The translations under genes and the position numbers were made by a program. A stretch of DNA of 64,000 nucleotides from Candidatus Eiseniibacteriota bacterium (GTDB lineage Bacteria; Eisenbacteria; RBG-16-71-46; JABDJR01): assembly GCA_942491735.1 (NCBI GenBank), contig CALOCN010000001.1:832040-896039 (forward strand), in the 5' to 3' direction. Below, piece by piece: positions 7,289 through 29,674 of the stretch; the stretch's first letter is position 1, and every line of letters starts with the position of its first letter. The notes beneath the pieces are model-generated. The model saw only the letters and a list, made by a program, of their open reading frames with translations. It made no database searches and was not told where the DNA came from.

Positions 7289-9052
7289 CTAGGGCAAACG
7301 CACGACGCGTTGGGTGCGGCGATGCTGCCCCGCCTGCAGACTCAGCAGATAGACGCCGGAGGCCACCGCGCTTCCGGCGTCGTTCGTTCCGTCCCAACGC
7401 ACTTCGTACGAACCGGCCGGCCGCTCGCCGTCCTCGATGAGCCGGACCCGCCGCCCGCGCAGGTCATAGACCGCGAGTTGGACCCGACCCGGCTCCTGGA
7501 CCTGGAACGCGATGGTGGTGGAGCTGCGGAACGGATTGGGGAACCGGGCCAGCTGGAGCTGCGGTGAGTCCGGGGTGTGGGGAGCGGCCAACTGCCCGTC
7601 AATCCGGAAGTCCGCAACAATCGCCGCGTGATCGCTGGCGATTTCGGTGTCTCCGGCGAGGAGCCCGGTTGCCGCGAGAGTGCTGGGGAGCATGGTTCGG
7701 GTCTCCACCACGAAGTGCGCGCCCAGGGTCATGACGCTTCCCGAGTAGACCACCCAATCCAGTTTCCCCGGCGAGAAGGAGCTGCCGTCGTTGCGCCAGG
7801 TGTAGGCGAAGCGGGCGTCGGGGTGCCGTGGGTTGGCGTCCTCGAGGTCGGACCCGTCCCAGTCCGGCGGGGAGTCCGGGCCCCAGGTTCCGTTGTCGGC
7901 AATGTCCCCGGTGAGCAGGGTGACCAGCTGATCCCGCCACCCCACGAGGTTGAAGTCCCCACAGACCACGAGGGGGGTGTTGACCGGAAGATCCAGAACC
8001 CCGCCCGGGGTGCGTGCATCGTCCAGGAAAGCGATCAGGGCATCCGCCTGCCGCTGGCGGTTGGCGTCCGCGGTGCAGCAGCTCCAATGATTGGCCACCA
8101 CAAGCAGGTCGGTCACATAGGAGGGACCGGGGTCCACCAGGGCAGCGGAGAGCCGGTCGCCCGGGTTGATCTCCCAGGAGTCGAGAATAGGAAAGCGGCT
8201 CACGATCACGTTGCCCGCGTCCCGCTTGACCGCGTGCCAGGCCTCGCCGGGGCCGCTGGGGAGCAGCGTTTCCATCTGATTCGCGACCGCCGAGGCACTA
8301 CTGTTCCAGGCCTCGCAGATGACCCAGACGTCCGGATCAACGGCGTCGGCGATACGATTCTGCGCCGCCTCCCGCGAACCCCCGTCAAAGAGACCGTCGT
8401 TCTCCACATTGTAGGATGCGATCCGCAGGTGGGATGGGTCGTTCCGGGCCAGGGAGAGGGAAGGAATGGGTTGGGGAGCTTCGTCGAACGTGTAGGTCGC
8501 AAGGGAAATGACATCTCCGCTCCCCCCATCGCGCAACACGAGCCGGATCGTGGTCTGGGGAAAGAGGGCCGCTCCCGCGGCCGGGGTGGCGGAACGATCC
8601 AGGGACATCTCGAATCGGGTGTCGCTCACCGTGGGGCCGATGACGAAACCAATGTCGTCGTGGCGAATGGTGTATCCGTTTCCGGCGGCGGTGAACGTCC
8701 CCTCCCGTTGCCCGAACTCCCACACCAAATCCGCCCCGATCCCGGACATGGACTGGCCGGTGCCGGCGTTCATGTCCGTATCGATGCCCAGCTCGATGCC
8801 CTGCCCCTCGTCACCCTGGACCTCGGCCGTGGTGTCGAAGAACAGATACAGCCAGTCCGGGTCGTTGGCCACGACCAGCTGGGTGAAATCGATTCCGCTG
8901 GGGCCATGGTCCCCGCTGGCGTCGATCACGCTGACCGGAATGCCGGCCCATTCGTCGAAGTCACCATCGATACGAACAGGCAGGGAGCCCGCGAACACGG
9001 TCGCGGGAATCAGGGCGAGGAGGGTGACCAGGGTGAGGAGCTGATGATGCAT
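7289..9052 (-). CDS. Secreted endonuclease/exonuclease/phosphatase (EEP)-family protein with a T9SS C-terminal sorting domain.
   Basis: The true start is MHHQLLTLVTLLALIPATVFAGS, a signal peptide, at 9052. The track ORF 7289..10258 is over-extended upstream. The EEP core includes VWVICEAWN...VCGDFN...SDHAAIVADF. The C-terminus is ARFPNPFRSSTTIAFQV...GVYLLSLQAGQHRRTQRVVRLP. Confidence 0.75.
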   Translation of the reverse strand: MHHQLLTLVTLLALIPATVFAGSLPVRIDGDFDEWAGIPVSVIDASGDHGPSGIDFTQLVVANDPDWLYLFFDTTAEVQGDEGQGIELGIDTDMNAGTGQSMSGIGADLVWEFGQREGTFTAAGNGYTIRHDDIGFVIGPTVSDTRFEMSLDRSATPAAGAALFPQTTIRLVLRDGGSGDVISLATYTFDEAPQPIPSLSLARNDPSHLRIASYNVENDGLFDGGSREAAQNRIADAVDPDVWVICEAWNSSASAVANQMETLLPSGPGEAWHAVKRDAGNVIVSRFPILDSWEINPGDRLSAALVDPGPSYVTDLLVVANHWSCCTADANRQRQADALIAFLDDARTPGGVLDLPVNTPLVVCGDFNLVGWRDQLVTLLTGDIADNGTWGPDSPPDWDGSDLEDANPRHPDARFAYTWRNDGSSFSPGKLDWVVYSGSVMTLGAHFVVETRTMLPSTLAATGLLAGDTEIASDHAAIVADFRIDGQLAAPHTPDSPQLQLARFPNPFRSSTTIAFQVQEPGRVQLAVYDLRGRRVRLIEDGERPAGSYEVRWDGTNDAGSAVASGVYLLSLQAGQHRRTQRVVRLP

Positions 9053-9253
9053 CGAGAAAGTATAGGGCAGACAAGTCTGCCTTGAGCGAACAATGCCGAG
9101 TGGACCCACCCAGGGGATGGGCTCCGTTCGTTTCCCGGGTTTCTTTCCGTGCCGTTGCACACTCTCGGCGAAGAATCCGCATGTCCCAGTGACCCGCAAG
9201 CCGGCGCGGGCCGACCCGAGGCCGGCTGGACCCTTCCCAGAGAGGCCACTGCC

Positions 9254-10228
9254 ATGCGACACATCACCGTAATCCTCCTTCTTGTATGCGCTTGGGCGTT
9301 CCCTGCGAGTTCCCTGGCCGGAACCGGGGACCTGAGCCTGGACGCCCCTTTTGACAACCTGGCCTTGGGCCCGGTCGGTACGGGGGGGGCCGCCGCGGGC
9401 CAGCCCATCGTGGTCTCGGCCATGACCGCCAACGTGATCGACACCGGATCGTCCTACGCCCTGGAGGCGATTCACACCGCGCTCCTCGTCCCGGGAGGCG
9501 TCTGGTTCGAGTTCATTGGCGACGAGGAGATCACCTCGGGCACCGTCTGCATCTCCTATACCGTCACGTTCCAGGCGCTGGGGATCTACATCTTCACCAT
9601 CTACGAACAGGGGAGTGTGGGAAGCCAGTTCTCCAAGATGACCCTCAATGCGGGTGGACAGATCTCCTTCTTCGATCAGAACAACCTGGTAGGCGCGATC
9701 GCTACCTCGAGCTATCAGGTCGGCGTTCCGCTGGAGGTTCTCTACGAGTACGACCTGGATGCCGGGACCTACGACGTGAGCCTGGGCGGATCGCTTCTGT
9801 TGGACGACGAGGACCACGGCATCACGACCCGGGGAATCGGTCGACTCATGTTCACCAACAACGCGTTCAGTGCCGGTCACTTCGTCCTGGATGACGTCAA
9901 GGTGCAGAAGGGCGGGGCGGCGCTTGCTGCGGGTCCCGGGGTGGTCCCGGGGTTGGGAATGCTGCATGCCCCGCAGCCCAACCCCATGCGGAGCGGCACC
10001 CGGGTGCGGTTCGACCTGGAGCAGGCGGGAGCGGTGCAGGTGTCCGTGTTCGACGCCACCGGGCGGCGGGTCCGTACGTTGATCAACGGGGCGCTGGGGG
10101 TGGGCACCCACGACATCCGATGGGACGGCGCCGATGACCGGGGGATCACGGTTCCGGCCGGGCTCTATTTTGTGCGGCTCCACTCGGGTGGGCAGGCCGT
10201 TGCGCGCAAGGTCATTCGGGTGGACTGA
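9254..10228 (+). CDS. Secreted protein of unknown function with a T9SS C-terminal sorting domain.
   Basis: Start MRHITVILLLVCAWAFPASSLAG, a signal peptide. The C-terminus is QPNPMRSGTRVRFDLEQAGAVQVSVFDATGRRVRTL...GLYFVRLHSGGQAVARKVIRVD. The upstream part of track ORF 9149.. is 5' leader. Confidence 0.7.
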   Translation: MRHITVILLLVCAWAFPASSLAGTGDLSLDAPFDNLALGPVGTGGAAAGQPIVVSAMTANVIDTGSSYALEAIHTALLVPGGVWFEFIGDEEITSGTVCISYTVTFQALGIYIFTIYEQGSVGSQFSKMTLNAGGQISFFDQNNLVGAIATSSYQVGVPLEVLYEYDLDAGTYDVSLGGSLLLDDEDHGITTRGIGRLMFTNNAFSAGHFVLDDVKVQKGGAALAAGPGVVPGLGMLHAPQPNPMRSGTRVRFDLEQAGAVQVSVFDATGRRVRTLINGALGVGTHDIRWDGADDRGITVPAGLYFVRLHSGGQAVARKVIRVD

Positions 10229-10316
10229 TGACCCTCGGGCTTGAGCTTCGTCGATCATTGAACTAGCCTCTCGTTTGAACGTTCATGCGAGAGCCAGTGA
10301 TTCTTCGGAGGTCTTC

Positions 10317-11324
10317 ATGCCCCGCCTGTCCCGCGTCCTGATCTTCCGTTCCGTGGTCACTCTGCTCGGGGTCTTCGCGATCCTGGGCGTCCCCGCCTGC
10401 AGCGAAGCCGACGATCCGCTCCCGTCCTGGACCGGGGCCCCGCGGGAAGCGCTCATGGAGTTCGTCGAGGCGGTGACCACCGAGGGGTCGGCCGATTACG
10501 TGGAGTCGGCGAACCGCATCGCCACCTTCGACAACGATGGGTGTCTGTGGTCGGAGCAGCCTTTCTACTTCCAGTTGGCCTTCACCATGGACCGGATCAA
10601 GGCGCTCGCTCCCGAGCACCCCGAGTGGTCGACCACCGAACCCTACAAATCGGTGCTGGCCGGGGACGTGGCCGGTGCCCTGGGAGCCGGCAAGAAGGCC
10701 CTGATGGAACTCCTGATGGCGGCTCATGCCGGCAATACCAGCGAGGAGTTCACCGCGATCGTGGTCGAATGGCTGGCGAGCGCGAAGCACCCCGTGACCG
10801 GGAGGCCCTATACCGGGATGGTCTATCAGCCCATGCTCGAGCTCCTGGACTACCTGCGGGCCAACGGGTTCAAGACGTTCATCGTCAGCGGTGGGGGAAT
10901 CGAGTTCATGCGCCCCTGGACCGGGAGGGTCTACGGCATTCCGCCCGAGCAGGTAGTCGGGAGCAGCGTCAAGACGGAGTTCGGAATGAGGGACGGCCAG
11001 CCGGTGTTGAATCGTCTGCCCGAGATGAACTTCATCGACGACGGTCCCGGCAAACCGGTGGGGATCCACGAGCACATTGGCCGGCGCCCCATTCTTGCCT
11101 TCGGGAACTCGGACGGCGACCTGCAGATGCTCCAATGGACCGCGGCCGGTCCCGGGCGGAGCTTCATGGGATTGATCCACCACACCGATGCGGATCGCGA
11201 GTGGGCCTACGACCGCGAATCCCACATCGGGAAGCTGGACAAGGCCCTGGACGAGGCGACCCGGCGGGGCTGGACGGTGGTGGACATGAAGGCGAACTGG
11301 AAAACGATCTACCCGGAGAACTGA
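10317..11324 (+). CDS. HAD-superfamily hydrolase, probably a secreted or lipoprotein form.
   Basis: GGAGG precedes the ATG at 10317. An N-terminal hydrophobic segment ends ...ILGVPAC. The HAD motif I-like segment is FDNDGCLW and the motif IV-like segment is FGNSDGDLQML. Confidence 0.65.
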   Translation: MPRLSRVLIFRSVVTLLGVFAILGVPACSEADDPLPSWTGAPREALMEFVEAVTTEGSADYVESANRIATFDNDGCLWSEQPFYFQLAFTMDRIKALAPEHPEWSTTEPYKSVLAGDVAGALGAGKKALMELLMAAHAGNTSEEFTAIVVEWLASAKHPVTGRPYTGMVYQPMLELLDYLRANGFKTFIVSGGGIEFMRPWTGRVYGIPPEQVVGSSVKTEFGMRDGQPVLNRLPEMNFIDDGPGKPVGIHEHIGRRPILAFGNSDGDLQMLQWTAAGPGRSFMGLIHHTDADREWAYDRESHIGKLDKALDEATRRGWTVVDMKANWKTIYPEN

Positions 11325-11370
11325 TGCGGTAGGGTGAGATGGATGCTGCGGGCTTGCGGAAGGAAGTTTC

Positions 11371-11919
11371 ATGATCGCGAGAACGGCTTGTTTGATTGTT
11401 CTCTGCTGCCTCCAACTGCAGACCGCCCACGCGGAAGAACCGGACAGGGATACCGTCGCCCTGGCCGCGTCGGTCGCTGAGCTCCAGCAGGCAGTGGGCA
11501 CCTGGTCCGTGGTTACCGAGTTCCTGAACCCGGACGGCAGCGTGGCACGCTCGGTCGAAGGCACCTACAGCTTCGAGTGGGTGGTGCCGGATCGCGTGGT
11601 GAGCGGGACCTCGACCATTCCGGATCTGGACCAGCAGTCGGCGATCCTGTTCTACGTCAACGAATCCGCACGGACCATCGAGATGGTCTCGGTGGGTGCG
11701 GACGGCAAACTCTGGGTCATGACCGGTGAGCTTGGCGGCAACACGCGCACGACCCCGGAGTTCGAGACCGCGGGAGGGGGGAAAAGCCGTTTGCGGTTCA
11801 CCCGTTCGAATGTCACCCCGGACCGTTTCGAGTCGCGGATGGAATACCTCGATGAGCCCGGAAACTGGGTGCAAGGGAACCACCAGGTGTTTATCCGGTC
11901 CAAACCCCGATCAAAATGA
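11371..11919 (+). CDS. Secreted hypothetical protein, possibly of the DUF1579 type.
   Basis: The signal peptide is MIARTACLIVLCCLQLQTAHA. It is 182 aa, with no recognisable catalytic motif. Confidence 0.45.
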   Translation: MIARTACLIVLCCLQLQTAHAEEPDRDTVALAASVAELQQAVGTWSVVTEFLNPDGSVARSVEGTYSFEWVVPDRVVSGTSTIPDLDQQSAILFYVNESARTIEMVSVGADGKLWVMTGELGGNTRTTPEFETAGGGKSRLRFTRSNVTPDRFESRMEYLDEPGNWVQGNHQVFIRSKPRSK

Positions 11920-11924: not shown

Positions 11925-14900
11925 ATGGACACAGGGCGACGGGAGTTTCTTGCCAGTCACCTGCCCCGGTTCTTCGTACGCCGGAGACCGGACCCCGAAG
12001 ACACGCTACCGTTTCGACAGCAGTTCCCGGCGTCACTCCTGTTTGTCGATGTGGCGGGCTTCACCCGGCTGACCCTGCGGCTCTCCGAACGTGGGCCGGT
12101 GGGAGCCGAGCAACTCTCGGGTTTTCTCGATCGCATCTTCGGTCGGATTACCGGAGTCATCCTCGATCACGGTGGCGACGTGCTCGCCTACGCGGGCGAT
12201 GCCGTTCTCGCGTTCTGGCCCGAGCCTTCAGCCAACAGGCCTACGGAAGGATTGAACGCCGCCGCCCGGGCCGCCTTCGCAATCCAGGGGATCCTTGCCG
12301 ATGCGGCCGCATCCGATATGCCGATCCGGCTTCGGGCCACCCTGGGCGCGGGGACGGTGTCCTGGTTGGAAGTGGGCGGCGTGGGCGACTACTGGCCCTT
12401 TCTCGTGGTCGGGGAAGTGTTCAATGAGGTAGCCATCGCTGACGCGGGCGGAGCGTCGGGAACGGTTGTGGTGACCCGGGAGAGTTGGCCTCTCCTCGCG
12501 GCCACCTGGCGTGGAGAGCCACTCCCCTCGGGTGGAGTCAGGTTGATCGGCCTTCCCCCGGGAGAACCGGGACAGTTGTCGGATTCGCTCCCGTCCGGCC
12601 CCGGTCCCGGGATCGACCGCTACGTGCCACCGTTCGTTCGCGACTGCGGGGAGGCGGGGCGCGATTCCTGGGTCCCGGAATTTCGTCACATCAGCGCGTT
12701 GTTCGTGAACCTGCGTGGGGGAGTGGACTGGGATGAGCCGCTTTCCCTGCACCCTGCGATTCGGCTCCTGCAGGAGACCCTCGCGCGATTCGAAGGGTGT
12801 TTCTATCAGGTCCTTTCGGACGACAAGGGTCTGTCGGTGGTCGCGGCATTCGGACTGCCCTCGTATACCCACGAGGATGACGCCGTGCGAGCCGTTCTGG
12901 CTGCGCAGGAGATGACCGCCAATCTGGCGAGTCTCGGGATCGATGCGTCGTGCGGTGTGGCCACGGGGCTCACCTTCTACGGTCTGTGCGGGTTGGAATC
13001 CCGGCAGCAGTTCACCATGGTGGGTCCGGTCATGAACGCGGCGGCCCGGCTCATGCAGGCTGCCGACCACGGCGTCCTTTGCGACACGGAAACGGCGAGG
13101 GCCGCGGAGCATCCCAGGCTCAGATTCCACGCTCAGGAGGCGATCCGGGCCAAGGGGATCGATGATCCCATCCCCGTTAACCGGCCCCAGGTCGTGGAAC
13201 TGGCGCATCGCACGCGGGCCACGACGGCGCGCCCGGACCTGGTCGGACGATCCACGGAACGGGGCGCCCTGCTCGACGTCCTTGACCGCGCATCAGGCGG
13301 TGCGTGTGCCAGGGCGGTGGTTGAAGGCGAGCCGGGTATCGGCAAGTCGGCCCTGTTGGACTTCGCGGTCGCGGAGGCACAAGCCCGCGGGTTTTCCGTC
13401 TTTCGGGGGGCGGGAGACGCGATCGAGAAACACACTCCCTACTTTGCCTGGCGAACCATGATCGCCGGCCTGTTCGGCCTGGATCCCACCGCGCCGATCG
13501 GGGATCAACGTCGGGCCGTGCTCGGGCGTCTCGAGAAGAGTCCGAACCTTGCCCTCTTGGGCGCCCTCGCCAATCGGTTCCTTCCGTTCGAGATCCCCGA
13601 GACCGACGCCACCCGTCAAATGGACGAGGAGTCGCGGGCCGATGCGTCCCATCGTCTGATCCTGCGCCTGATTCAGGACGCGGCTGCCGGCTCCCCGATT
13701 CTCATTGCATTCGAGGACGGCCACTGGCTCGATGCCGCCTCCTGGACCTTGCTCTCCCAGGCCTGGTTCCGCCTGACCCCCATGGCGGCGATCCTTACCA
13801 CCCGGCGGGTGGCGGAGCCAGGTCCAGGAATACGGGACGTGCTCGCCGAGCCGGAACTGAAACACCTGCAGCTGTGCCCGCTCGAGTCGGGAGGCGTGAC
13901 GGAGATGGTGTGTCGGCGGCTCGGTGTGGATCAACTGCCACCGGTGGTGTCCAGAGTGATCGCGGCCCGATCGGGCGGCAACCCCTTCTTCGCCGAGGCG
14001 CTGACCCTCGGTCTGCTCGACGCAGGTCTGATCGAGGTCCACGAAGGGCGCTGTCGTCTGGGTGACGGTGCGGAGACCCCGTCCCTCTCCTTCGACGAGG
14101 CCGTTGAGGCGGCCGGGTTCCCCGGCTCGATACGGGGCGTCCTCGCGGCGAGGCTCGACCGACTGCCTTCAGCGCCACGGCTCACCCTGAAAGTGGCGAG
14201 CGTGTTCGGTCAGCGGGTTCCGGTCGAGGCCCTGCAGGCACTCCATCCCGTTTCCGTGGATCGCCGGAGCCTTGAGGAAAACCTCGGGATCCTTGATCAG
14301 CGTGGGTTGATTCGCATGGATGTGCCGGCAGGTGCATTCGAGTTCGGTCACGCACTGACCCGTGACGTTGCCTATGAGTCCATGGCCTTCGCACAACGCC
14401 GTCCGCTGCATCTTGCGACCGCGCAGTGGATCGAGAAGCGCCACGTGGACGCCCTGTCTCCCCACTACGCTGCGCTCTCTCATCATTGGCGACACGCCCA
14501 GGACCCACAAAGGGCCATGGACTACGCGAACCGCGCCGGACATCTGGCTCTCAAGCACTTCGCCAATACGGAGGCGGTCCGCCACCTGAGGGTTGCCCTG
14601 GAACTGGACGATGAACTCAATGCGGATCCCGACTGGCAGGGAATCGATCCCGCACGTCGGGCCATCTGGGAGTTCCATCTCGGCAAGGCCTACGTGAACG
14701 GATCGGGGTACGGGGAAGGACGCCCCTTCCTTGAGCGCGGCCTGGCGGAACTCGATCGGGCACCTCCCGGGGGTACCCTGCCGAGGATGAGGGGGCTCTT
14801 CGCGGACGTGATGCGTCAGGTCCTGCACCGGGTCCGCCCCGGGAGCTGTCTGGGGCGCCGTCAGATGGACGCGGGACGTCTCCTGGAATCCTCCCGGGCG

Positions 14901-15911
14901 CTGGAGGCCCTGACCGAAATCCACTATATGGGGGACGACATGCTTCCCTGTCTTCACTCGGCGATCCGATCCCTCAACCTGGCCGAGCTGGCCGGCCCGT
15001 CCGAGGAATTGGCTCGGGGGTATGCGTCGGTGGGCGCCATACTCGGATTCATGCGGCTGCGTGGTGCGGCGCGATCCTACGCGGATCGGGCCCTCGCCGT
15101 GGCCCGCGAGGTGGACAGCCCGCGTGCCGAAGCGTATGTCTCCCTGGCCACCGCGGTGTATCTGGCCGGGATCGGCGAGTGGGAAGAAGCGTCGTCGCTC
15201 CTGGGCAACGCCGCGGACATTGCGGCCTCGATGGGGAATCACCGACGCCGTCAGGACGCGGTCCTCCAGTTGGCGGCGATCAGTTTCTACCGGGGTGATT
15301 TCCACGGCACGCTGGAACTCGCCTCGCAGCTGCACGATTCGGCATCCGAAACGCGCCACCTGCGCTACCTGGGTGTCGCCGCGCGTCGGCAAGCCTATTG
15401 CCACTTTGCCCTTGGGCAACTGGAACCGGTTGAAGGGTGCATCCGCACCCTGGAGCAGGGCTCCGGATTCGAAGGGGGGTTCGAGCATCTGGACCTGTAC
15501 GTCATCCGGGCCATGCATCGACTTCGCTCGGGGGATCAGGAGGGGGCGGTCGAATCGGCGACGGCGGCGAGCCGGATCCTGGAGGCCACTTCGCCGGCGC
15601 TGTTCGACATTCTGCACGACTACACCACCCTGGGAGAAGTGTGGTTGGGATTGGACGAGGCGTCATGGCGAGCGTCCGGTCAGGCCGGGCTTTCGCGGGT
15701 CCTGCGATCGCTCAAGTCCTACGGACTCATGTTTCCCATTGGTCGACCGGCGACGTTGAGGCTTCGTGGAGAGTTGGCCCTGCGCCATGGGAAGGCGGGC
15801 CGGGCACGCAGGACGTGGCGCAAGGCGCTGGCTGCCGCCGAGGATCTGGGGATGCCCTTCGAGAAGGCGTTGCTGACCACGTTGTTGACCCGGAACGAGG
15901 AAGTTCAATGA
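11925..15911 (+). CDS. Multidomain signalling protein with two tandem class-III adenylate/guanylate cyclase homology domains. A P-loop NTPase (STAND-like) domain and a TPR-like helical C-terminal region follow.
   Basis: The first cyclase domain has FVDVAGFT...YAGDAVLAFW, so the metal-binding Asp residues are present. The second domain has FVNLRGG, a degenerate metal site. The Walker A motif is GEPGIGKSALLDF. A long alpha-helical TPR-like tail follows. The gene starts 6 nt after the previous stop. Confidence 0.8.
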   Translation: MDTGRREFLASHLPRFFVRRRPDPEDTLPFRQQFPASLLFVDVAGFTRLTLRLSERGPVGAEQLSGFLDRIFGRITGVILDHGGDVLAYAGDAVLAFWPEPSANRPTEGLNAAARAAFAIQGILADAAASDMPIRLRATLGAGTVSWLEVGGVGDYWPFLVVGEVFNEVAIADAGGASGTVVVTRESWPLLAATWRGEPLPSGGVRLIGLPPGEPGQLSDSLPSGPGPGIDRYVPPFVRDCGEAGRDSWVPEFRHISALFVNLRGGVDWDEPLSLHPAIRLLQETLARFEGCFYQVLSDDKGLSVVAAFGLPSYTHEDDAVRAVLAAQEMTANLASLGIDASCGVATGLTFYGLCGLESRQQFTMVGPVMNAAARLMQAADHGVLCDTETARAAEHPRLRFHAQEAIRAKGIDDPIPVNRPQVVELAHRTRATTARPDLVGRSTERGALLDVLDRASGGACARAVVEGEPGIGKSALLDFAVAEAQARGFSVFRGAGDAIEKHTPYFAWRTMIAGLFGLDPTAPIGDQRRAVLGRLEKSPNLALLGALANRFLPFEIPETDATRQMDEESRADASHRLILRLIQDAAAGSPILIAFEDGHWLDAASWTLLSQAWFRLTPMAAILTTRRVAEPGPGIRDVLAEPELKHLQLCPLESGGVTEMVCRRLGVDQLPPVVSRVIAARSGGNPFFAEALTLGLLDAGLIEVHEGRCRLGDGAETPSLSFDEAVEAAGFPGSIRGVLAARLDRLPSAPRLTLKVASVFGQRVPVEALQALHPVSVDRRSLEENLGILDQRGLIRMDVPAGAFEFGHALTRDVAYESMAFAQRRPLHLATAQWIEKRHVDALSPHYAALSHHWRHAQDPQRAMDYANRAGHLALKHFANTEAVRHLRVALELDDELNADPDWQGIDPARRAIWEFHLGKAYVNGSGYGEGRPFLERGLAELDRAPPGGTLPRMRGLFADVMRQVLHRVRPGSCLGRRQMDAGRLLESSRALEALTEIHYMGDDMLPCLHSAIRSLNLAELAGPSEELARGYASVGAILGFMRLRGAARSYADRALAVAREVDSPRAEAYVSLATAVYLAGIGEWEEASSLLGNAADIAASMGNHRRRQDAVLQLAAISFYRGDFHGTLELASQLHDSASETRHLRYLGVAARRQAYCHFALGQLEPVEGCIRTLEQGSGFEGGFEHLDLYVIRAMHRLRSGDQEGAVESATAASRILEATSPALFDILHDYTTLGEVWLGLDEASWRASGQAGLSRVLRSLKSYGLMFPIGRPATLRLRGELALRHGKAGRARRTWRKALAAAEDLGMPFEKALLTTLLTRNEEVQ

Positions 15912-16858
15912 TGCCAGCCGACCCCGAACCACGCCGCTACCTGGAGCACTCGATCCGGCGACTCCGGACAACACTCGAGTCGGACCTTTCTCCGGCCCAC
16001 GAGCCGGTCCTGGAGTGGATCCACGCGCTCTCTCCCACCGCTGCCCCCGAGGATTACTTCCTGCACCCGCGTTCCTATCCGATTCTCCAGCTCCCGGTCT
16101 GGGCCACCCGTGGTGCGTCGGGGGGGCTGGGGGAGGAGGACCTGGAAGCGCTTACCTACTCCACCGTCTGCGGCTACTACGCCATCCGTCTCATGGACGA
16201 CCTCATGGATCGGCCGGATCGCGCCCCGATGCACCTCTTGCCCTCGGTGGCCTTCTTCCTGGGTGAGTTCCAGGCCGTGTATACGCGTTGGTTTCCACCC
16301 GAGCACGTGTTCTGGTCCGAGTTTCGCGAGCTGTGGTACGGGACGCAGGCCTGTGCCATCGCCGATGTCGCGCTCGAAACCATTGATCGTGAGGCGTTCG
16401 AGAGGATTTCGGGGAACAAGATGCGGGCAGGCTTGATACCGGTGTCGGCGGTTCTGCATCGCACCGGACTCGCTGACCGCATCCCCGCCTGGCGTCGTTT
16501 CTGCGATCAGCTGGGGCCGTGGGTGCAGATGATGGACGACCTCTTCGACTGGCATCAGGATCTTCGCGCCGGGAGCCGCACCTACTTCCTGAGCGAGGCC
16601 CAGACCCGGCGTGCCCCGGCCCAGTCCGTGATGGAGTGGGTCGTGCTTGGAGGATTCGACTGGGGCGTGGAAGCACTGAACGTCCGATTGGTAGCCCTGC
16701 GGGAAGCCGCGCGGGGAGTGGGTTCCCCGGATGTGGATGGGCACCTGGACCAGCGTGCGGAGATCCTGGAGGAGTTGAAGGGCCTGGGTCGAGGACTCAC
16801 CGAACTGGGCAGACTGACCAGGATTGTGTGCTACGATGCCGACGACCGACGTCCTTAA
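15908..16858 (+). CDS. Isoprenoid-synthase-fold protein (polyprenyl synthase / ComQ-like) with two DDxxD motifs.
   Basis: The ATG at 15908 overlaps the cyclase stop by ATGA, indicating translational coupling. The motifs are YYAIRLMDDLMDRPD and, about 120 residues later, VQMMDDLFDWHQDL. This spacing resembles the FARM/SARM arrangement of the trans-IPPS fold. The call rests on inference from motifs only. Confidence 0.5.
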   Translation: MMPADPEPRRYLEHSIRRLRTTLESDLSPAHEPVLEWIHALSPTAAPEDYFLHPRSYPILQLPVWATRGASGGLGEEDLEALTYSTVCGYYAIRLMDDLMDRPDRAPMHLLPSVAFFLGEFQAVYTRWFPPEHVFWSEFRELWYGTQACAIADVALETIDREAFERISGNKMRAGLIPVSAVLHRTGLADRIPAWRRFCDQLGPWVQMMDDLFDWHQDLRAGSRTYFLSEAQTRRAPAQSVMEWVVLGGFDWGVEALNVRLVALREAARGVGSPDVDGHLDQRAEILEELKGLGRGLTELGRLTRIVCYDADDRRP

Positions 16859-16886
16859 GACACTCACTCCCACCTAGGAATACGAA

Positions 16887-17093
16887 ATGAATGTCAAGGA
16901 TCTCGTAGACAAGTATATGCACGATTCCGCCTTTCGCAGCGGTCTTCAGAACGACCCCGAAGGCACGCTCCGGGGCGCGGGGGTCAACCCCACTCCGGAA
17001 ATGTTGAATGCCGTCAAGAACGTGGACCACGGATCATTGAAGGCTGTCGCCGACTCCTTCGACCCGTTCGATCCCGGCGGCATCAGCTGCTGA
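16887..17093 (+). CDS. Precursor peptide with an NHLP/Nif11-type leader. It is 68 aa with a Gly-Gly motif and a C-terminal Cys.
   Basis: An RBS (agga) lies 8 nt upstream. The leader is MNVKDLVDKYMHDSAFRSGLQNDPEGTLRGAGVNPTPEMLNAV, matching the D-AF---L--DP---L---GV--P NHLP pattern. The tail is ...SFDPFDPGGISC. The peptide has no Trp and a single Cys, at the C-terminus. Confidence 0.6.
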   Translation: MNVKDLVDKYMHDSAFRSGLQNDPEGTLRGAGVNPTPEMLNAVKNVDHGSLKAVADSFDPFDPGGISC

Positions 17094-17200
17094 TCGGCTG
17101 ACCCTCCCTCCAGGAGGTCGTCCTGCGCTCGACGCTCATTGATGCAGCCCTTTCCCAGGAAGTCCTTGGCATCACGGCCCTGGTCGGGGACCTGCTATGG

Positions 17201-17821
17201 GTGGTGGCGTACTACCTGGTCATCCGCGTCGGCTTTCGGGAGAAGTCCTACGGGATCCCCCTCGTAGCCATCCTGCTCAACCTTTCCTGGGAGCTGATCT
17301 ACACATTCATCTTCCCACCCGAGATGCTGATCAAGCGGGTGTTGTTCGGTGCGTGGTTCGGGATCGACATGCTGGTGTTCTACCAGCTGCTGCGCTACGG
17401 GAAACGTGTCCAGGTCATTCCGGATATTCAACGGCACTTCTATGCCATTGTCTTCCTGACCTTCCTCTGGACCTTTGTCGGTCACTTGACGTTCCGGGTC
17501 ACCTTCTCCGACCTGGGTGGCGTGCGGGTCGCGTTCATGCAGAACATGGTCATGAGCGTCCTCTTCGTGTTCATGCTCTTCTCCCGCCGCGACCTGAGGG
17601 GACTTTCCTACGGCGCGGCCTGGTTCAAGATGATCGGGACCCTGATCATCTCCGTGTCGGACTTCCTCATGGTTCGTGGCTCCCAGGCCGAGTACGGATT
17701 CATGACCTTCCTCTATGTTTCCATTGTCATCTTCGATGCGTTCTACCTGGGGTTGTTCACGCGTGAACGGGCCCGTCTCAAGGCAGGGGAGCCGGACCGG
17801 ATCCATCCCGCCCCTGCCTAG
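17201..17821 (+). CDS. Polytopic (~6 TM) integral membrane protein of unknown function.
   Basis: Track ORF with a GTG start. Hydrophobic helices include IPLVAILLNLSWELIYTFIF and FYAIVFLTFLWTFVGHL. The in-frame region upstream (to 17102) is also hydrophobic, so the true start may lie upstream at a non-canonical codon. The stop overlaps the convergent kinase gene. Confidence 0.55.
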   Translation: MVAYYLVIRVGFREKSYGIPLVAILLNLSWELIYTFIFPPEMLIKRVLFGAWFGIDMLVFYQLLRYGKRVQVIPDIQRHFYAIVFLTFLWTFVGHLTFRVTFSDLGGVRVAFMQNMVMSVLFVFMLFSRRDLRGLSYGAAWFKMIGTLIISVSDFLMVRGSQAEYGFMTFLYVSIVIFDAFYLGLFTRERARLKAGEPDRIHPAPA

Positions 17822-19092
17822 GACCAGGCAACGAGGGTGGCCAGATCCAGGTCGCGTTCCGCCGGATCAAACCGGAGGGCACGATCCAGGAACGCGTGCA
17901 TTTCCGCGCTGATCCCCGTTCCAATGTCCTCGCGCCGAGGCAGCTCGAAGACCGCCTTCTCCCGGATGACCGTCATGAGATCGGTTCCGGAAAACAGAGG
18001 GCGGCCGGCCAGGGCCTCGTAGGCGGTACAGGCCAGGGAGTAGAGATCGGCCCGGGGCCCCACCTCGCTTCCGGAGAGCTGTTCCGGCGGCATGTAGATG
18101 GGGCTACCCAGGAGGGTCCCGGGGAGGGTGTGGGTCACTCCCTGGTCGGGCTCCGGGCGAGCGACCCCGAAGTCCATGAGCCGCGGCCGATCGTTCTCGT
18201 TCACCATGATGTTGCTGGGCTTGAGATCGCGATGCACGATGCCTTGTTCATGGACGTAGCGGAGGGCCTCGGCCAGTCGCCCCATCAGGGTGCGGACCCG
18301 TTTCTCGCCCAGGGCGCCTTCTTCCCGGATGAGTGCGTCCAGGGTACGGCCGGCGCAGAACTCCAGGACCAGGAAGTAGGTATTGAAGGCCCGGAAGCGG
18401 CCGTGGAGTCGCGCGACCCCGGGGTGATCCAGTCCTTGCACGATGTCGGCTTCGCGCCGAAACCGCGCGGTGGCGCCCAGGTGATAGAGAAGCCGGTGGC
18501 TGAGCATCTTGAGCGCGACCCGTTTCCCGGACTCCACATGTTCGGCTTCGTAGACGATGGCCATCCCGCCCCGGCCCAGAACCCGGGTGATGCGATACCC
18601 CTCGAGCACCTTCCCGCCCAGACCATCCCGCGCCCCCGTGCCCAGGCGCTCGGCGACCAGGTTCGTGCAGACCGCGGCCAGGTCGGGATAGCGACGCGCC
18701 ACCCGGTGAAAGGCATCGGATGGGAGCTGGAACGCTCTCCCGGAGGATTCCGCAATGATGGTCGCGGTGCGTGGTTCCTCGGTGACAAGAGCCATTTCCC
18801 CGATGACATCACCGGCACCGAAGCGTCCTACGATGGTCGAATCCTGGGCGGGATCGGCCACCTCGGCACGGGCCGCTCCCTCGAGGAGTACGAGCAGGAA
18901 CTCCGGGGGATCTCCCTGGCGAATGAGGAGTTCGCCCTCATCGAAGTGGAGCTCGGTGGCATTCTCGAGCACCGCGTCCAGCGAGTCCCAGGGTTGCCCG
19001 TGGAACAGCACCGACGCGGCGATCTCATCGCGTAGCGCGGAGGAAGGGGGAACGGAACGCACCATGGATGGCAGTATAGCGAATGTGCCCAT
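17818..19092 (-). CDS. Ser/Thr protein kinase with a cyclic-nucleotide-binding domain.
   Basis: The N-terminal CAP_ED segment has ...GDVIGEMALVTEEPRTATIIA... The kinase domain has GRGGMAIVYEA...VALK, HRDLKPSNIMV and DFGVA. Confidence 0.85.
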   Translation of the reverse strand: MGTFAILPSMVRSVPPSSALRDEIAASVLFHGQPWDSLDAVLENATELHFDEGELLIRQGDPPEFLLVLLEGAARAEVADPAQDSTIVGRFGAGDVIGEMALVTEEPRTATIIAESSGRAFQLPSDAFHRVARRYPDLAAVCTNLVAERLGTGARDGLGGKVLEGYRITRVLGRGGMAIVYEAEHVESGKRVALKMLSHRLLYHLGATARFRREADIVQGLDHPGVARLHGRFRAFNTYFLVLEFCAGRTLDALIREEGALGEKRVRTLMGRLAEALRYVHEQGIVHRDLKPSNIMVNENDRPRLMDFGVARPEPDQGVTHTLPGTLLGSPIYMPPEQLSGSEVGPRADLYSLACTAYEALAGRPLFSGTDLMTVIREKAVFELPRREDIGTGISAEMHAFLDRALRFDPAERDLDLATLVAWS

Positions 19093-19154: not shown

Positions 19155-22100
19155 CTAGAGAATCAGCTTCATCAGCCCCGCCATGGTCCGCTGCATGCCG
19201 CTGCCGGGAGGGAGTAGTGCGTTGAGGTCGTCCACGGTCTCCACCCACTGGCAAAGCCCCGTCAGCAGCATGAAGTCCAGCATGCCGACAAGGCTTCTCC
19301 AGCCTGCCATGGTGATCATGGCCTCCCCGTCCATCAGCATGCTGTGATAGTCCATGTTCACGCTGCCCACGGTCAGATAGAGCACCATCCGTTCCCGCTC
19401 TTGCGCAGGCGTGTCCGCGAGGAGGTTGGTGACCATTCGTGCAGTCTGTTGCCTGAGGGCGTCGGGAAGTCGCGTGACGTCGGGGTGGGAGTCGCCGCTC
19501 GTCGATCCGAGTTCCGCCAGATAGGTGATGTACTCCTTCAGGATTCCCGCCCATTCGGGCCGGGCGGCGATCCGATCCCAGGCATTCACGGAGGCGAACA
19601 TGTTCGCCTTGAGGTGCATCTTGGGGCTGATCAGCGTGTCCTCCTCGTGGAGATACCGGACCGCGTAGCCCAGGGAGTCGAGTTGCGCGCCCGCGTTCTC
19701 CGCGACGGCAAGGAACTCCGGGCGATCGGGATAGATCTTCTTCTGCCACGGTACCGATGTGGCAACCGCCTGGGCGAACCTGCCGGCCAGATCGCCCACC
19801 CCCACCTTGGGGGCGTAGAGACCCACCTTGAGGAGTCCTCCTTCCCGGGCGATGTAGGAGTCCAGCGCATTGGCGACGACAAGAAGCCTGGCAAGCATCC
19901 CGTTGGCGCGTACCAGCTGCGGGGTCCCCGCGCTCGGAGCGGAACCCGCCGTGGGGGCGATCACGAGGACGCGGCATCCGCGTAGCGCGCTGCCCGAGAG
20001 CAGGGAGGCATAGATGTAGCTTTGCCACAGGGAGTCCGGCACCTTGAGAACGGAACCGGGGGGCATGAGGCTGTAGAGGACCGCCTTGACCGGGTTGATG
20101 GGTTTGGGACGGAACCCGGTCTGGTTGTGGAGCTGCAGGACCGCGGCTTCATCGTCGAACGCCTCCGCGCCCCCGGCGAGGAACTCCCGGACCTGGCTCG
20201 TGTAGTCGTAGCCGAAAGGGCGCGCCCGGAGCGGGGCGGGGATCTCCGACTCCGTGAAGCCCTGGTTCAGGAGGAGTTCGCGGGCGGCGGTTTTTGTTTC
20301 CAGGGCTTCCGGTCCCTCGATCATGACCGCGCGATCCTCCCAGTTCGCCCCCACGTAGTGCTCGCCGATCCCCATGCCGGTGAACATGGCCCGGCCGAGA
20401 TACGGGTCCTCCTCGGTCACGTCGTAGAAGGCGATCTTCCGGTGATCCCGCATCATGTTGTCGGGGATGGGGATGATGCCGACGCTGTGAAAACTGTAGA
20501 ACGACGGGTCGGCCGGATTCGTGATGTTTACATGGACCTTGACCAGGTTCTTCAGCCACTTGTCGCCGAACTGGGAGCGGGCGACATGCAGGGCGGTTGA
20601 GCTGTCGACGGCGGCACGGAGATCCCTCTGCAGTGATCGGAGGTGGTCTTCCCACTCCCGGTAGTCCCCGGGAAGGTTCGCCATCTCGTCCATGGGCTCC
20701 TGCAGGACGCGCAGCCACATTCGCGACTTGTTGAGCTCGAAGTAGTGTTGATCGAGGAAGATCATGTACATGGGCATCGACCCGGTCCTGTCGTAGGCCC
20801 GTGCGTGCTCGATCAGCGCTTCCAGGTAGTTCACCGTGTGTTGATAGGCGATCGCGTCGGGGTTCCCGTTTCCGTTGAGACCACGAATGTCGTGGATCCA
20901 CAGGACGTGGTACTCCTTCGCCTTGCGAACCGACCGCGCGATCTCGAACTGGAACTCCTCGTTCATGACGTACCAGACGCGGTTGCCCGGGGAGAATCGT
21001 TCCTGGGCCGCGCCTTCGATGATGGCGTTGATCTCCTCCTGGGTGTCGTGATCCTCCGGCTTGAGTGCGTACTGGAGCGGCAGCCAGACAAAACGGGTGT
21101 CGCCCCACTGTTTCCGCAGGGTCATGCGGTTCTCGTCCACGATGTCGCACAGCGTGTGGAACACGAGGAATGCCTGTCGGGCCTGGAACGGCGACACGTC
21201 GTTCTCGGAGGTCAACCACGCGCCGAACGCGGTTTTGGCCACGGCGAACGGGGCGCTCAAGCCGTCGTTCGTCTTCCGTTCACCCAGCAGGCTGTTGTAG
21301 CGGAGCAGCACTTCGTTGAGCAGGATCCCGCGGGCCGCGGCGCTTGCCTTGCGCCCGGTTGCACTGCTGTGACCCGTGGCGAAGGGCGTGCCGTCGACAG
21401 CAATGGAGAAAGCCCGGTCCAGCTCCGCGTGATAGACCCTGATCTCCTCGTTGAGGGTGTGGCCCTCCGGAAACAGGGCGTCGGTGGAGTCCATGTGGGT
21501 CACGAGCGTCGCCATGTAGGGAGCCAAGGCCCGGTGCGGATCCGCGTCGGACTTGTCCACCAACGGCTGGCTCAGGCGGGTGATCCAATGCGCACGTTCC
21601 CGCACGCCCGTGAGCGGGTCATCCAGTCGGGGATCCAGATCGACCTCGGCAACGCGGTATGGTTTGCGACTCTCAAGCCGGACTGCATCGTGGGGCGGCC
21701 GTGTCTTGCCCAGGTTCCGTGCCGGGAGCGGGAAGCTCAGCCCCACGCTCAGGGTGTTGTGATAGCCGGGCAGGTAGCGGATATCCAGGGTGGATCCGTT
21801 GCCCAGGATTCCTCCCCGTCGCATGGGGAGGCTCAGTTGCAGCATGAACGAGGCGGCGGTGTCCTTGATGTTGTAGTCGACTCCGAGCCCGAAGTAGAGC
21901 GAGGGGACCTTGAAGTAGGCTCGCCCACCGCCGTCGAGGTCGGCACCGCCGTCGCTGGGATTGGAACTCCTCGCCCCCACGTATCCCTCGAGACCCAGGG
22001 CGGCGATTCCGACCACCGGGCTTCCCAGGCTCTTCCAGACCCCGAGGTTCACGAGGCCGGCGAAGGAATCCAGCTGTCCCGGGCGATACCATTGGCCCTC

Positions 22101-22280
22101 CACGCCCGCGTAGGTGTTGTACACGGCGGGCATTCCCAGGGATCGGGTGATCCCGCCTCTCTGGGGGGTGGCGGTGTCCCTGGCCTCGGCCGGCGGGACC
22201 GGATTCGTGGCGAAGGCCAGGCCGAGGAGCGCGGCGAGGAACCCGGCGGGGCGGCCCCCGCTACGGAACGGAATCGTCAT
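19155..22280 (-). CDS. Large (1041 aa) secreted or outer-membrane protein of unknown function. The N-terminal segment is beta-strand-rich.
   Basis: The signal peptide is MTIPFRSGGRPAGFLAALLGLAFA. The first ~200 aa are Gly/Tyr-rich with alternating strands. The large C-terminal domain has no motif I recognise. Confidence 0.5.
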   Translation of the reverse strand: MTIPFRSGGRPAGFLAALLGLAFATNPVPPAEARDTATPQRGGITRSLGMPAVYNTYAGVEGQWYRPGQLDSFAGLVNLGVWKSLGSPVVGIAALGLEGYVGARSSNPSDGGADLDGGGRAYFKVPSLYFGLGVDYNIKDTAASFMLQLSLPMRRGGILGNGSTLDIRYLPGYHNTLSVGLSFPLPARNLGKTRPPHDAVRLESRKPYRVAEVDLDPRLDDPLTGVRERAHWITRLSQPLVDKSDADPHRALAPYMATLVTHMDSTDALFPEGHTLNEEIRVYHAELDRAFSIAVDGTPFATGHSSATGRKASAAARGILLNEVLLRYNSLLGERKTNDGLSAPFAVAKTAFGAWLTSENDVSPFQARQAFLVFHTLCDIVDENRMTLRKQWGDTRFVWLPLQYALKPEDHDTQEEINAIIEGAAQERFSPGNRVWYVMNEEFQFEIARSVRKAKEYHVLWIHDIRGLNGNGNPDAIAYQHTVNYLEALIEHARAYDRTGSMPMYMIFLDQHYFELNKSRMWLRVLQEPMDEMANLPGDYREWEDHLRSLQRDLRAAVDSSTALHVARSQFGDKWLKNLVKVHVNITNPADPSFYSFHSVGIIPIPDNMMRDHRKIAFYDVTEEDPYLGRAMFTGMGIGEHYVGANWEDRAVMIEGPEALETKTAARELLLNQGFTESEIPAPLRARPFGYDYTSQVREFLAGGAEAFDDEAAVLQLHNQTGFRPKPINPVKAVLYSLMPPGSVLKVPDSLWQSYIYASLLSGSALRGCRVLVIAPTAGSAPSAGTPQLVRANGMLARLLVVANALDSYIAREGGLLKVGLYAPKVGVGDLAGRFAQAVATSVPWQKKIYPDRPEFLAVAENAGAQLDSLGYAVRYLHEEDTLISPKMHLKANMFASVNAWDRIAARPEWAGILKEYITYLAELGSTSGDSHPDVTRLPDALRQQTARMVTNLLADTPAQERERMVLYLTVGSVNMDYHSMLMDGEAMITMAGWRSLVGMLDFMLLTGLCQWVETVDDLNALLPPGSGMQRTMAGLMKLIL

Positions 22281-22415
22281 GATCGGCCTCCGGACAAATC
22301 CGTGCTAACGTCATACCCCGTTTCACGATGGGGGATGGATCCGTCTGGATGGAGGATCCTTCGGGTGTTCTACGGACGGGGAATTCCTGTGAAAAACCGT
22401 GCCTTTGGCGTGCAC

Positions 22416-23504: not shown

Positions 23505-23645
23505 TTTGGGCGTGGGGGCGCGTGTGGTGTCAATCAAGGCTGCGGTTGGATCTCTAGTGCAACGTTAGTGAGCCGAGGTTCGCACTGACATTCGATTTGT
23601 TGGAACCCACGCAGACTACGACAACATCGACGCGGAGGCGATCTA

Positions 23646-24872: not shown

Positions 24873-24956
24873 GTTGCAGCCTCTCGGGCCTCGATCAGAT
24901 CAGCAACGTCTGGCAGCAAGACCAGGATTTACCACCCGGACCGGGGCGAACAGCCA

Positions 24957-25025
24957 ACCCGCCAACAAGAGCGAAAGTCCCTACCTCACAAGGAGATAGG
25001 GACTCTCAAGGTTGGTAGCGGGGAC
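24957..25025. repeat. Direct repeat copy 1 (69 bp). It is a partial copy of the tRNA-Met 3' end plus the downstream hairpin, and looks like an att-site footprint.
   Basis: The sequence is acccgccaacaagagcgaaagtccctacctcacaaggagatagggactctcaaggttggtagcggggac. It matches 29542..29610 at 64 of 69 positions and contains the 7-bp stem gtcccta/tagggac. Confidence 0.8.
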
Positions 25026-27666: not shown

Positions 27667-27740
27667 CTTGTAAGAACTGTCGTCAGACCATGGAGGCGAG
27701 GCATGCAGTGCGGGTCACGGATCCGGATGCGAGCGGCCAG

Positions 27741-29610: not shown

Positions 29611-29674
<64 letters not shown>

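Follow-up and report, generated by a model that had tools for sequence, protein, structure and literature searches.

We describe a locus in a 64,000-nucleotide stretch of the genome of a Candidatus Eiseniibacteriota bacterium (contig CALOCN010000001.1, positions 832,040 to 896,039; hereinafter, the window, in whose coordinates all positions are given unless another locus is named). Between 11925 and 19092, five consecutive genes encode a large protein that combines a tandem class III nucleotide cyclase with a STAND (signal transduction ATPase with numerous domains) module and a tetratricopeptide repeat (TPR)-like arm, a three-gene cassette that appears to specify a terpenoid-modified RiPP (a peptide made by the ribosome and modified after translation), and a Ser/Thr kinase with a cyclic nucleotide-binding (CNB) domain. 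With moderate confidence, we interpret the five genes as one unit, in which a circuit that operates through a cyclic nucleoside monophosphate (cNMP) is embedded in the pathway of the RiPP-terpenoid cassette. An earlier reading of the same DNA (the original prediction) paired the cyclase with the kinase and suggested that the genes between them could be the regulated output. The components of the locus, with the evidence for each, are the following (aa, amino acids; sAC, human soluble adenylyl cyclase; AF2, AlphaFold2).

11925-15911, plus strand: tandem cyclase-STAND-TPR protein, 1328 aa (open reading frame (ORF); Pfam Guanylate_cyc, AAA_16 and a weak TPR_MalT match)
12012-12524, plus strand: cyclase domain C1, residues ~30-200 (phmmer match to sAC 16-197, residue mapping, AF2 and Foldseek)
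12672-13199, plus strand: cyclase domain C2, residues ~250-425 (phmmer, residue mapping, Foldseek)
13239-13760, plus strand: STAND/AAA_16 NTPase module (Pfam AAA_16, residues 439-612; Walker A; Walker-B-like FEDGHWLD)
14412-15908, plus strand: C-terminal helical TPR-like sensor arm (weak TPR_MalT match; TPR families in most homologs)
15908-16858, plus strand: enzyme with a predicted isoprenoid-synthase fold, unnamed family, 316 aa (AF2, Foldseek, profile search)
16887-17093, plus strand: RiPP precursor of the NHLP (nitrile hydratase leader peptide) clan, 68 aa, C-terminus ...DPFDPGGISC (NCBIfam NF038399)
17201-17821, plus strand: Pyr4-like transmembrane terpene cyclase, 206-aa ORF from a GTG codon (PF25129)
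17818-19092, minus strand: CNB-Ser/Thr kinase, 424 aa (Pfam cNMP_binding, nt 18688-18951, and Pkinase, nt 17854-18597)

The stop codon of the cyclase gene overlaps the ATG of the gene for the 316-aa enzyme (ATGA), and we take the cassette to be translationally coupled to the cyclase. The kinase gene is convergent with the cyclase operon, with a 4-bp overlap, and exactly three genes separate it from the cyclase gene, as the original prediction had it.

Association of the cassette with the cyclase

The cassette, consisting of the genes for the 316-aa enzyme, the precursor and the Pyr4-like protein, was found in 12 other loci (L001-L010, L019 and L021) from Acidobacteriota, Chloroflexia, Gemmatimonadales and Gammaproteobacteria. 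When the window is included, the cassette is located beside a cyclase-STAND gene in 12 of the 13 loci, directly downstream of it in 11 and rearranged within the cluster in L004. The sole cassette locus that lacks an adjoining cyclase-STAND gene is L007, and the genes are fragmented in L008 and L010. The cassette, rather than the kinase, is the most constant partner of the cyclase.

The nucleotide signal is linked to the cassette in two further ways. In P0386, a protein of 848 aa recorded in two independent sources (JGI and Logan data), a member of the cassette-enzyme family is joined to an HExxH (metallopeptidase-like) region and, at the C-terminus, to a CNB domain in which the same PRTAT motif recurs; a second member of this fusion family comes from NCBI. 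In addition, both the kinase and the cyclase-STAND protein of the window match TIGR03903, the model of a kinase/cyclase fusion associated with thiazole/oxazole-modified microcins, in which a Ser/Thr kinase, a cyclase and STAND/TPR parts likewise accompany NHLP-type RiPP clusters. The kinase aligns to model positions 2-199 and the cyclase-STAND protein to positions 344-919, with scores of 157.8 and 127.3 bits, respectively, against a cut-off of 705.75. Unlike this fusion, the parts in the window are split between two genes, one for a tandem cyclase and the other for a kinase with a CNB input; there is no cyclodehydratase, and the chemistry encoded nearby is isoprenoid rather than thiazole/oxazole. 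The operon coupling, the CNB fusion and the TIGR03903 match are three independent observations that, at the sequence level, argue that the nucleotide signal is connected to the cassette, in agreement with the original prediction, which suggested the prenyl-peptide module as a possible regulated output of this signal.

Some cassette loci carry additional or alternative genes. A 2-oxoglutarate-Fe(II) oxygenase is encoded directly after the Pyr4-like gene in L002 (10528-11130) and L019 (11920-12621), and none is present in the window. In the Chloroflexia loci L006 (10973-12265) and L008 (10930-12099), the gene that follows the cassette enzyme encodes a protein of 389-430 aa with a papain-like Cys/His signature, recognized by eye, in place of the precursor and Pyr4-like genes; an NHLP-like peptide is encoded further downstream in L008 (12123-12491).

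Predicted chemistry of the cassette

The 316-aa enzyme has no match in Pfam or NCBIfam and no sequence match in the Protein Data Bank (PDB). A word-indexed search yielded 34 relatives, all unnamed, and a profile search yielded 246 cluster representatives at E<=1e-30 and 565 at E<=1e-10. In its AF2 model (predicted local distance difference test score, pLDDT, 92.4), the enzyme adopts the all-helical fold of isoprenyl diphosphate synthases and class I terpenoid enzymes; the best Foldseek matches are farnesyl, geranylgeranyl and octaprenyl diphosphate synthases and the prenyltransferase MoeN5, with template modeling (TM) scores of ~0.5-0.6 for the top-ranked structures and a maximum of 0.64. Five residues, D97, D101, D211, W215 and D218, are invariant in the family. 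The fold, the adjacent small precursor and the invariant first Asp-rich motif (D97/D101) are all reminiscent of the peptide prenyltransferases ComQ, PalQ and ChrPC, which resemble isoprenyl diphosphate synthases of the trans type (trans-IDS), but the 316-aa enzyme does not belong to this group by sequence, and its precursors have no conserved Trp.

The precursor matches NF038399 (Os1348 family of the NHLP clan) with 60.2 bits, against a cut-off of 40. Homologous precursors are encoded in 10 other loci, and the leader is conserved across the ten distinct peptides, which end in Cys (five), Thr (four) or Ser (one), usually preceded by a hydrophobic residue. None of the ten contains a conserved Trp, which rules out Trp prenylation of the ComQ type. 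All the characterized trans-IDS-like peptide prenyltransferases target Trp (PMC13290415); the sequences of the precursors suggest a different acceptor, namely, the C-terminal Cys, Thr or Ser.

The Pyr4-like protein matches PF25129 with 94.1 bits (cut-off 27) over profile positions 30-220 of 227. A conserved N-terminal helix of this family (GDLLW; ..LGITALVGDLLWVVAY..) is encoded in frame at ~17102-17200, upstream of the GTG at 17201 and downstream of a stop codon, in a stretch that contains no ATG, GTG or TTG; the sequence is the same in L013, an independent Logan assembly that duplicates the window. Because this helix is encoded upstream of the annotated start with none of the three common start codons, the 206-aa ORF appears to be too short, and the gene probably begins upstream of 17201 at a rare start codon. 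Membership in PF25129 is shared with the bacterial Pyr4-like cyclases XiaH, TylF, GroF and that of the zigralone pathway. The known bacterial cyclases of this family act in the cyclization of meroterpenoids of the indole, quinolone or guanidine types. The survey that describes them, which covers mainly Actinomycetota (PMC13307353), yielded no hit when searched for terms that denote peptide or RiPP substrates, whereas the cassette loci come from other phyla. Prenylation followed by terpene cyclization on a RiPP is on record for ChrPC and NctPC (PMC13290415; StheQ preprint), where an MstE-like domain is present rather than the separate Pyr4-type membrane cyclase seen here.

It is conceivable, although we regard it as doubtful, that the cassette defines a new class of RiPPs, in which an enzyme from a new branch of the isoprenoid-synthase fold would prenylate a C-terminal Cys, Thr or Ser and a Pyr4-type enzyme would cyclize the prenyl chain, all under a private cNMP circuit that is based on a full-length homolog of sAC and whose STAND-TPR arm would sense the lipid-peptide made by the pathway itself.

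The cyclase core

The 1328-aa protein opens with two class III cyclase domains, as originally predicted. The whole protein scores 25.3 bits against Pfam Guanylate_cyc (cut-off 21.9), and each half alone scores 16-17 bits. The best PDB match found by phmmer is human sAC (ADCY10; E 1.2e-33), and the match is in register, with residues 9-191 aligned to sAC 16-197 and residues 243-418 to sAC 279-459. The AF2 model of residues 1-440, built from 56 homologs, has a pLDDT of 91.4 and a predicted TM score of 0.90; in a Foldseek search, the 24 best structures are all sAC (TM score 0.80-0.84, 25-26% identity over ~460 columns), followed by the membrane adenylyl cyclase AC9 (~0.70). Given this in-register match and the superposition of the model on sAC, the N-terminal part of the protein is assigned as an intramolecular C1-C2 pseudo-heterodimer of the sAC type, with one predicted active site.

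The mapping of the individual residues is consistent with this assignment. In C1, D42 (FVDVAGFT) and D92 (YAGDAVLAF) correspond to the metal-binding pair D47 and D99 of sAC. In C2, the adenine-site pair is Q295 and T364 (sAC K334 and T405), and the transition-state pair is N371 and R375 (sAC N412 and R416). Among 120 homologs, no substitution occurs at D42, D92 or R375, and 112 keep N371. Both Asp motifs of domain 1 had been noted in the original prediction, as had the replacement of the first Asp of domain 2 by Asn (FVNLRGG) and the suggestion of a single-site pseudo-heterodimer; these points stand, and the alignment and the model now specify the sAC type. The description of domain 2 as degenerate has to be revised. 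Because it carries Q295, T364, N371 and R375, C2 is not a dead domain and, judging from the alignment, is the complementary half of the single active site; the decayed part is the second, pseudo-symmetric pocket, which in sAC is the bicarbonate site. The expectation in the original prediction that domain 1 itself keep the Lys, Asn and Arg residues is ill-posed for C1/C2 cyclases because their C1 domains are expected to lack this set. Sensitivity to bicarbonate of the kind seen in sAC is ruled out on sequence, the equivalents of sAC K95 and R176 being A88 and A170, respectively.

Of the pair of residues that specifies adenine, Thr is kept (T364) and Lys is replaced (Q295). The Lys of a DDKG motif was considered as the adenine-binding residue and rejected because both phmmer and MAFFT align sAC K334 to Q295. 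The position equivalent to sAC 334 is occupied by Lys in 58 and by Gln in 54 of the 120 homologs. The Gln/Thr pair is present in all eight intact cassette-linked cyclases for which the active-site residues were read, and the relatives with the Lys/Thr pair, which also keep K95, are encoded without a cassette. A Gln at the Lys position is reportedly present in the active mycobacterial cyclase Rv0386. ATP is probably the substrate and cAMP the product. Nevertheless, with Gln in place of the adenine-binding Lys and Ala at both bicarbonate positions, the Gln295/Thr364 pair is non-canonical and the product nucleotide is not readable from the sequence, as the original prediction had cautioned.

The same substitutions are compatible with the alternative that the cyclase does not synthesize a second messenger at all and instead is a pseudo-enzyme or scaffold, makes an unusual nucleotide, or supplies a nucleotide as a building block of the product. 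Apart from the loss of the adenine Lys and both bicarbonate-site residues, this possibility would account for the Pfam score of each individual domain, which is under the cut-off, and for the tight operon coupling to biosynthetic genes, which resembles that of a pathway enzyme. We consider it quite improbable: the catalytic residues (the two Asp, Asn and Arg) are all conserved, and the repeated occurrence of CNB domains, either as neighbors of the cyclase or in fusion with components of the cassette, fits a diffusible cNMP.

The STAND module and the sensor arm

Following the cyclase core, the protein shows the features of STAND NTPases of the MalT and LAL (large ATP-binding regulators of the LuxR family) kind, that is, an AAA_16 domain with Walker A and Walker-B-like motifs and then a TPR-like sensor. 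The P-loop claimed in the original prediction (GEPGIGKS, residues 467-474) falls within a clear AAA_16 match (E 2e-18), and G468, G471, G473, K474, S475 and D603 are invariant across 56 homologs, with D598 and W601 conserved as well. The TPR solenoid of the original prediction is less distinct in the window protein itself, where TPR_MalT matches residues 1048-1208 with 17.8 bits, below the cut-off, but TPR_12 or TPR_MalT is recorded in most homologs, and the C-terminal arm is conserved to its end in the alignment. Neither Pfam nor NCBIfam detects a LuxR-type or other helix-turn-helix (HTH) DNA-binding domain in the 1328-aa protein, so that the cyclase appears to be its only output. More than 1549 homologs were detected at E<=1e-20, and full-length relatives with 33-41% identity are present in Acidobacteriota, Chloroflexota, Gemmatimonadota and Verrucomicrobiota.

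This architecture has two sets of known counterparts. The MalT/LAL regulators and the Rv0386 group share with the window protein the AAA_16 STAND module and the TPR-like arm. LAL regulators typically sit in biosynthetic clusters, and Rv0386, a member of the cyclase-ATPase-HTH group, is said to have its cyclase at the N-terminus. The window protein differs from both in the lack of a LuxR HTH and in possessing a tandem C1-C2 core rather than a single, homodimerizing cyclase domain. The second counterpart is full-length sAC (sACfl, ADCY10), in which C1 and C2 also lie in one chain with a single active site, followed by a region with a predicted STAND domain and P-loop, for which no specific regulator has been found (PMC12802110). 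The comparison with sACfl was made by alignment for the catalytic core and by published description for the STAND region. The metal-binding Asp pair and the equivalents of Thr405, Asn412 and Arg416 are kept in the window protein, whereas Lys334 is replaced by Gln295 and the bicarbonate-site Lys95 and Arg176 by Ala; furthermore, the window protein is bacterial, its gene shares an operon with biosynthetic genes, and it has a CNB-kinase as its partner.

The CNB-kinase and its linkage to the cyclase

The kinase contains a cNMP_binding domain (PF00027, residues 48-135, 72.9 bits) followed by a Pkinase domain (residues 166-413, 176.7 bits). Among 120 homologs, both the phosphate-binding cassette (G98, E99 and R108-T109-A110) and a family-specific linker (ERLG...DGLGGK) are conserved. 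All the kinase motifs are intact (the GRGGMAIVY G-loop, VALK with K195, HRDLKPSN and DFG), and the G-loop, VALK and DFG are kept in the 120 homologs. The protein can be classified from these motifs as a Hanks-type Ser/Thr kinase with a cNMP-sensing input, with putative gating by cNMP. A search at E<=1e-10 retrieved 4749 homologs of the kinase, and the top 120 (44-51% identity) all combine CNB and kinase domains. Our literature search found no functional study of bacterial CNB-fused Ser/Thr kinases.

For eight kinase relatives (44-51% identity) on long contigs, the neighborhood of the gene was compared, with the following results (CHD, cyclase homology domain).

L011: cyclase-STAND gene divergent, 1.2 kb from the CNB-kinase
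L012: CNB-kinase and cyclase-STAND in one operon, with a stop/start overlap
L015: a single gene between the CNB-kinase and cyclase-STAND
L016: CNB-kinase and cyclase genes overlap; the partner cyclase has a single CHD
L017: a single gene between the CNB-kinase and cyclase-STAND
L014: only a STAND fragment beside the CNB-kinase
L098, L099: no cyclase-STAND near the CNB-kinase

A cyclase-STAND homolog is thus encoded within 5 kb of the kinase in five of the eight relatives, and in two of these five pairs (L012 and L016), the genes overlap or are co-operonic. The binomial probability of five or more such pairs among eight is 1.5e-5 at a chance rate of 5%, a rate that was assumed rather than measured.

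From the opposite side, the picture is different, and several observations weigh against the kinase, and more generally the complete circuit, as we construe it. The CNB-kinase is absent from all 12 other cassette-bearing loci and from the vicinity of all seven further tandem cyclases with usable flanks, so the cassette system does not depend on its presence; an intact cyclase neighbor is missing for three of the eight kinase relatives (L014, L098 and L099); the samples are small and skewed to long contigs; and Ser/Thr kinases are abundant in the phyla concerned. Within the window, no phosphodiesterase, transcription factor or kinase substrate was identified, and a scan of the locus for promoters and terminators gave a signal at or below chance. 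Finally, cAMP as the messenger is not assured, given the Gln in place of the adenine-binding Lys. The functional pairing of kinase and cyclase put forward in the original prediction is therefore upheld in the neighborhoods of the kinase relatives, and it fails as direct synteny in the cassette loci and around the further cyclases. With five of eight on the kinase side and none on the cyclase and cassette side, the dependency is one-sided: this clade of kinases is usually found beside cyclase-STAND genes, and most cyclase-STAND genes use other outputs.

The absence of the CNB-kinase from the other cassette loci would be explained if the kinase were a chance neighbor and the true unit consisted of the cyclase-STAND protein and the cassette, with the nucleotide acting through a receptor encoded elsewhere, for example, one of the CRP type; indeed, a separate CRP-type gene is located nearby in L012. 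The kinase of the window also lies on the opposite strand and, being on the same strand as and only 62 bp away from an unrelated upstream gene for a 1041-aa protein, may be co-transcribed with it. Chance adjacency is nonetheless unlikely given the reciprocal synteny, small as the samples are: a cyclase-STAND gene accompanies five of the eight kinase relatives, with two pairs overlapping or co-operonic, and the only CNB domain and the only cyclase encoded in the 64 kb of the window both belong to this locus, which also holds its only kinase gene of this kind, no second cyclase, CNB or kinase gene having been found there.

The genes located between or beside the other kinase-cyclase pairs likewise code for enzymes of isoprenoid or lipid metabolism: a UbiA prenyltransferase, methyltransferases and a desaturase, FAD enzymes that resemble phytoene desaturase, an MpaB/Lcp-type oxygenase, and two more Pyr4-like cyclases. 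A cargo enzyme common to the kinase-linked loci was ruled out: the 364-390-aa proteins of L011 and L012 are unrelated to each other or to the cassette enzyme. In L016 (10001-17266), the CNB-kinase gene overlaps the start of the gene for a 1055-aa single-CHD STAND cyclase, which is followed by the MpaB/Lcp-type oxygenase and two tandem Pyr4-like cyclases; no peptide was detected in this region, which represents a second type of cargo associated with the same parts.

These neighborhoods also bear on the alternative that the kinase is a biosynthetic enzyme that phosphorylates the precursor or an intermediate, as do the kinase domains of class III and class IV lanthipeptide synthetases, the CNB domain only tuning its activity. 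In 6 of the 13 loci, the cassette has a Ser/Thr kinase gene at a distance of no more than ~3 kb, and five of these kinases are mutual full-length homologs; they are kinase-TPR proteins of 780-885 aa that lack a CNB domain and share 30-52% identity over ~780 aa (L003, 8637-10976; L004, 11483-13855; L005, 11874-14531; L007, 12269-14917; L019, 2840-5386). The precursors end in Ser, Thr or Cys, and the kinase is similar, at the domain level, to those of LanL and LanKC. However, half of the precursors end in Cys, there is no lyase partner, and the kinase-cyclase pairs elsewhere flank non-peptide modules (UbiA, methyltransferase, desaturase, FAD oxidase), so that we regard a biosynthetic role of the kinase as improbable, if worth considering. 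In L004, the kinase-TPR gene is part of the cluster itself and separates the precursor genes from the cyclase gene.

Metallo-beta-lactamase-fold proteins that match the Anti-Pycsar Apyc1 family (cNMP phosphodiesterases) are encoded near cyclase-STAND genes in L002 (2595-3617) and L017 (14153-15430). Such proteins could serve to break down the nucleotide of the circuit; in the window, none was observed.

Comparison with antiphage systems

Given that a class III-fold cyclase genomically paired with a CNB-domain protein is also the arrangement of Pycsar, to which the original prediction drew an analogy, the locus could be viewed as an antiphage system of the Pycsar or Avs kind, with a STAND phage sensor, a cyclase that raises the alarm and a CNB effector. 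The PycC models of PADLOC match C1 with 55 bits, the PD-T4-6 kinase models match the kinase, and STAND NTPases are common in defense. These PADLOC matches are generic to the domains, and membership in Pycsar or another defense system was ruled out on this ground; nothing beyond domain-level similarity is left of the analogy. The cyclase has a tandem sAC-type core joined to a STAND module, unlike the single-domain PycC homodimer, and the putative effector is a kinase rather than a CNB-transmembrane or CNB-TIR protein. The neighboring genes are biosynthetic or housekeeping (enolase, RlmN, secreted proteases), with no defense context, and the partner genes conserved across phyla encode isoprenoid enzymes. 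An antiphage function is, accordingly, highly improbable.

Genomic surroundings

Directly upstream of the cyclase gene and on the same strand are genes for a haloacid dehalogenase (HAD)-like hydrolase (10275-11324, plus strand) and a secreted-looking 182-aa protein (11371-11919, plus strand), the stop of the latter being 6 bp ahead of the cyclase start. A minus-strand ORF at 10263-11564, longer than the HAD-like ORF, looks spurious from its GC content by codon position. Beyond the kinase, the 1041-aa protein (19155-22280, minus strand), which has a signal-peptide-like N-terminus and no Pfam match, is the product of a gene whose end is 62 bp ahead of the start of the kinase gene. The HAD-like, 182-aa and 1041-aa genes were dropped as parts of the system; they recur in no examined locus except the duplicate assembly L013.

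Elsewhere in the window, large secreted proteins (subtilases, an M6 peptidase, proteins with Ig-like repeats) that end in FlgD_ig or sorting domains of the type IX secretion system (T9SS) type are encoded at 1074-4307, 7289-10258, 9149-10228, 25273-27666 and 53466-56987; the ORFs at 7289-10258 (minus strand) and 9149-10228 (plus strand) overlap, and both yield FlgD_ig/T9SS-type matches. The number of such proteins points to a phylum of the FCB group or one like or related to it. Another large TPR-gated regulator, unrelated to the cyclase locus, is the 1029-aa TPR-GAF-sigma54-activator-HTH protein encoded at 43289-46378 (plus strand). The GC content falls to 0.58-0.60 across 22000-30000, compared to ~0.66 elsewhere, with a tRNA-Met gene (29598-29674) at the edge; given these two features, this stretch may be a genomic island.

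Proposed circuit and implications

The analysis shows the identity of the domains, the catalytic residues, the order of the genes and how often they occur together; the circuit that we favor extends these results to predicted activities, ligand, nucleotide, kinase substrates and product chemistry. The TPR arm would bind a ligand, which could be a prenyl diphosphate, an intermediate of the pathway or its end product, the peptide-terpenoid. By analogy with MalT and the LAL regulators, the STAND module would then switch in a nucleotide-dependent manner and turn on the C1-C2 core, which would produce a 3',5'-cyclic nucleotide, probably cAMP. Binding of this nucleotide to the CNB domain would release the activity of the kinase, which would phosphorylate targets that govern the production of, or the response to, the modified peptide. 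On the biosynthetic side, the 316-aa enzyme would prenylate the precursor on the side chain of its last residue (Cys, Thr or Ser), and the Pyr4-like protein would subsequently cyclize the prenyl chain in the membrane.

Several of the ingredients are already known separately, namely, the cyclase-STAND architecture, CNB-kinase fusions (as database entries), bacterial Pyr4-like cyclases, and peptide prenylation followed by terpene cyclization. The literature search found no description of a conserved pairing between Q-type sAC-like STAND cyclases and this clade of CNB-kinases; of a cassette in which the isoprenoid-fold enzyme of the unnamed family occurs together with a Pyr4-type cyclase and an NHLP precursor that ends in a nucleophile, or of its operon coupling to a cyclase; or of the CNB fusion of the cassette enzyme. 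The main value of the locus lies in the cassette and its apparent private control by a cNMP. If the circuit is real, the pathway would rank among the rare natural-product pathways that are under their own second-messenger module rather than a DNA-binding cluster regulator.

The conserved partner cyclase, moreover, supplies a testable input for the numerous bacterial CNB-fused kinases. If the more doubtful reading, a new class of RiPPs under a private circuit that senses its own lipid-peptide, were to hold, the locus would also offer a convenient bacterial system in which to study what the STAND region does in mammalian sAC. The conserved isoprenoid or peptide-lipid neighbors of the bacterial homologs hint at the type of ligand that the STAND region of sACfl may bind.

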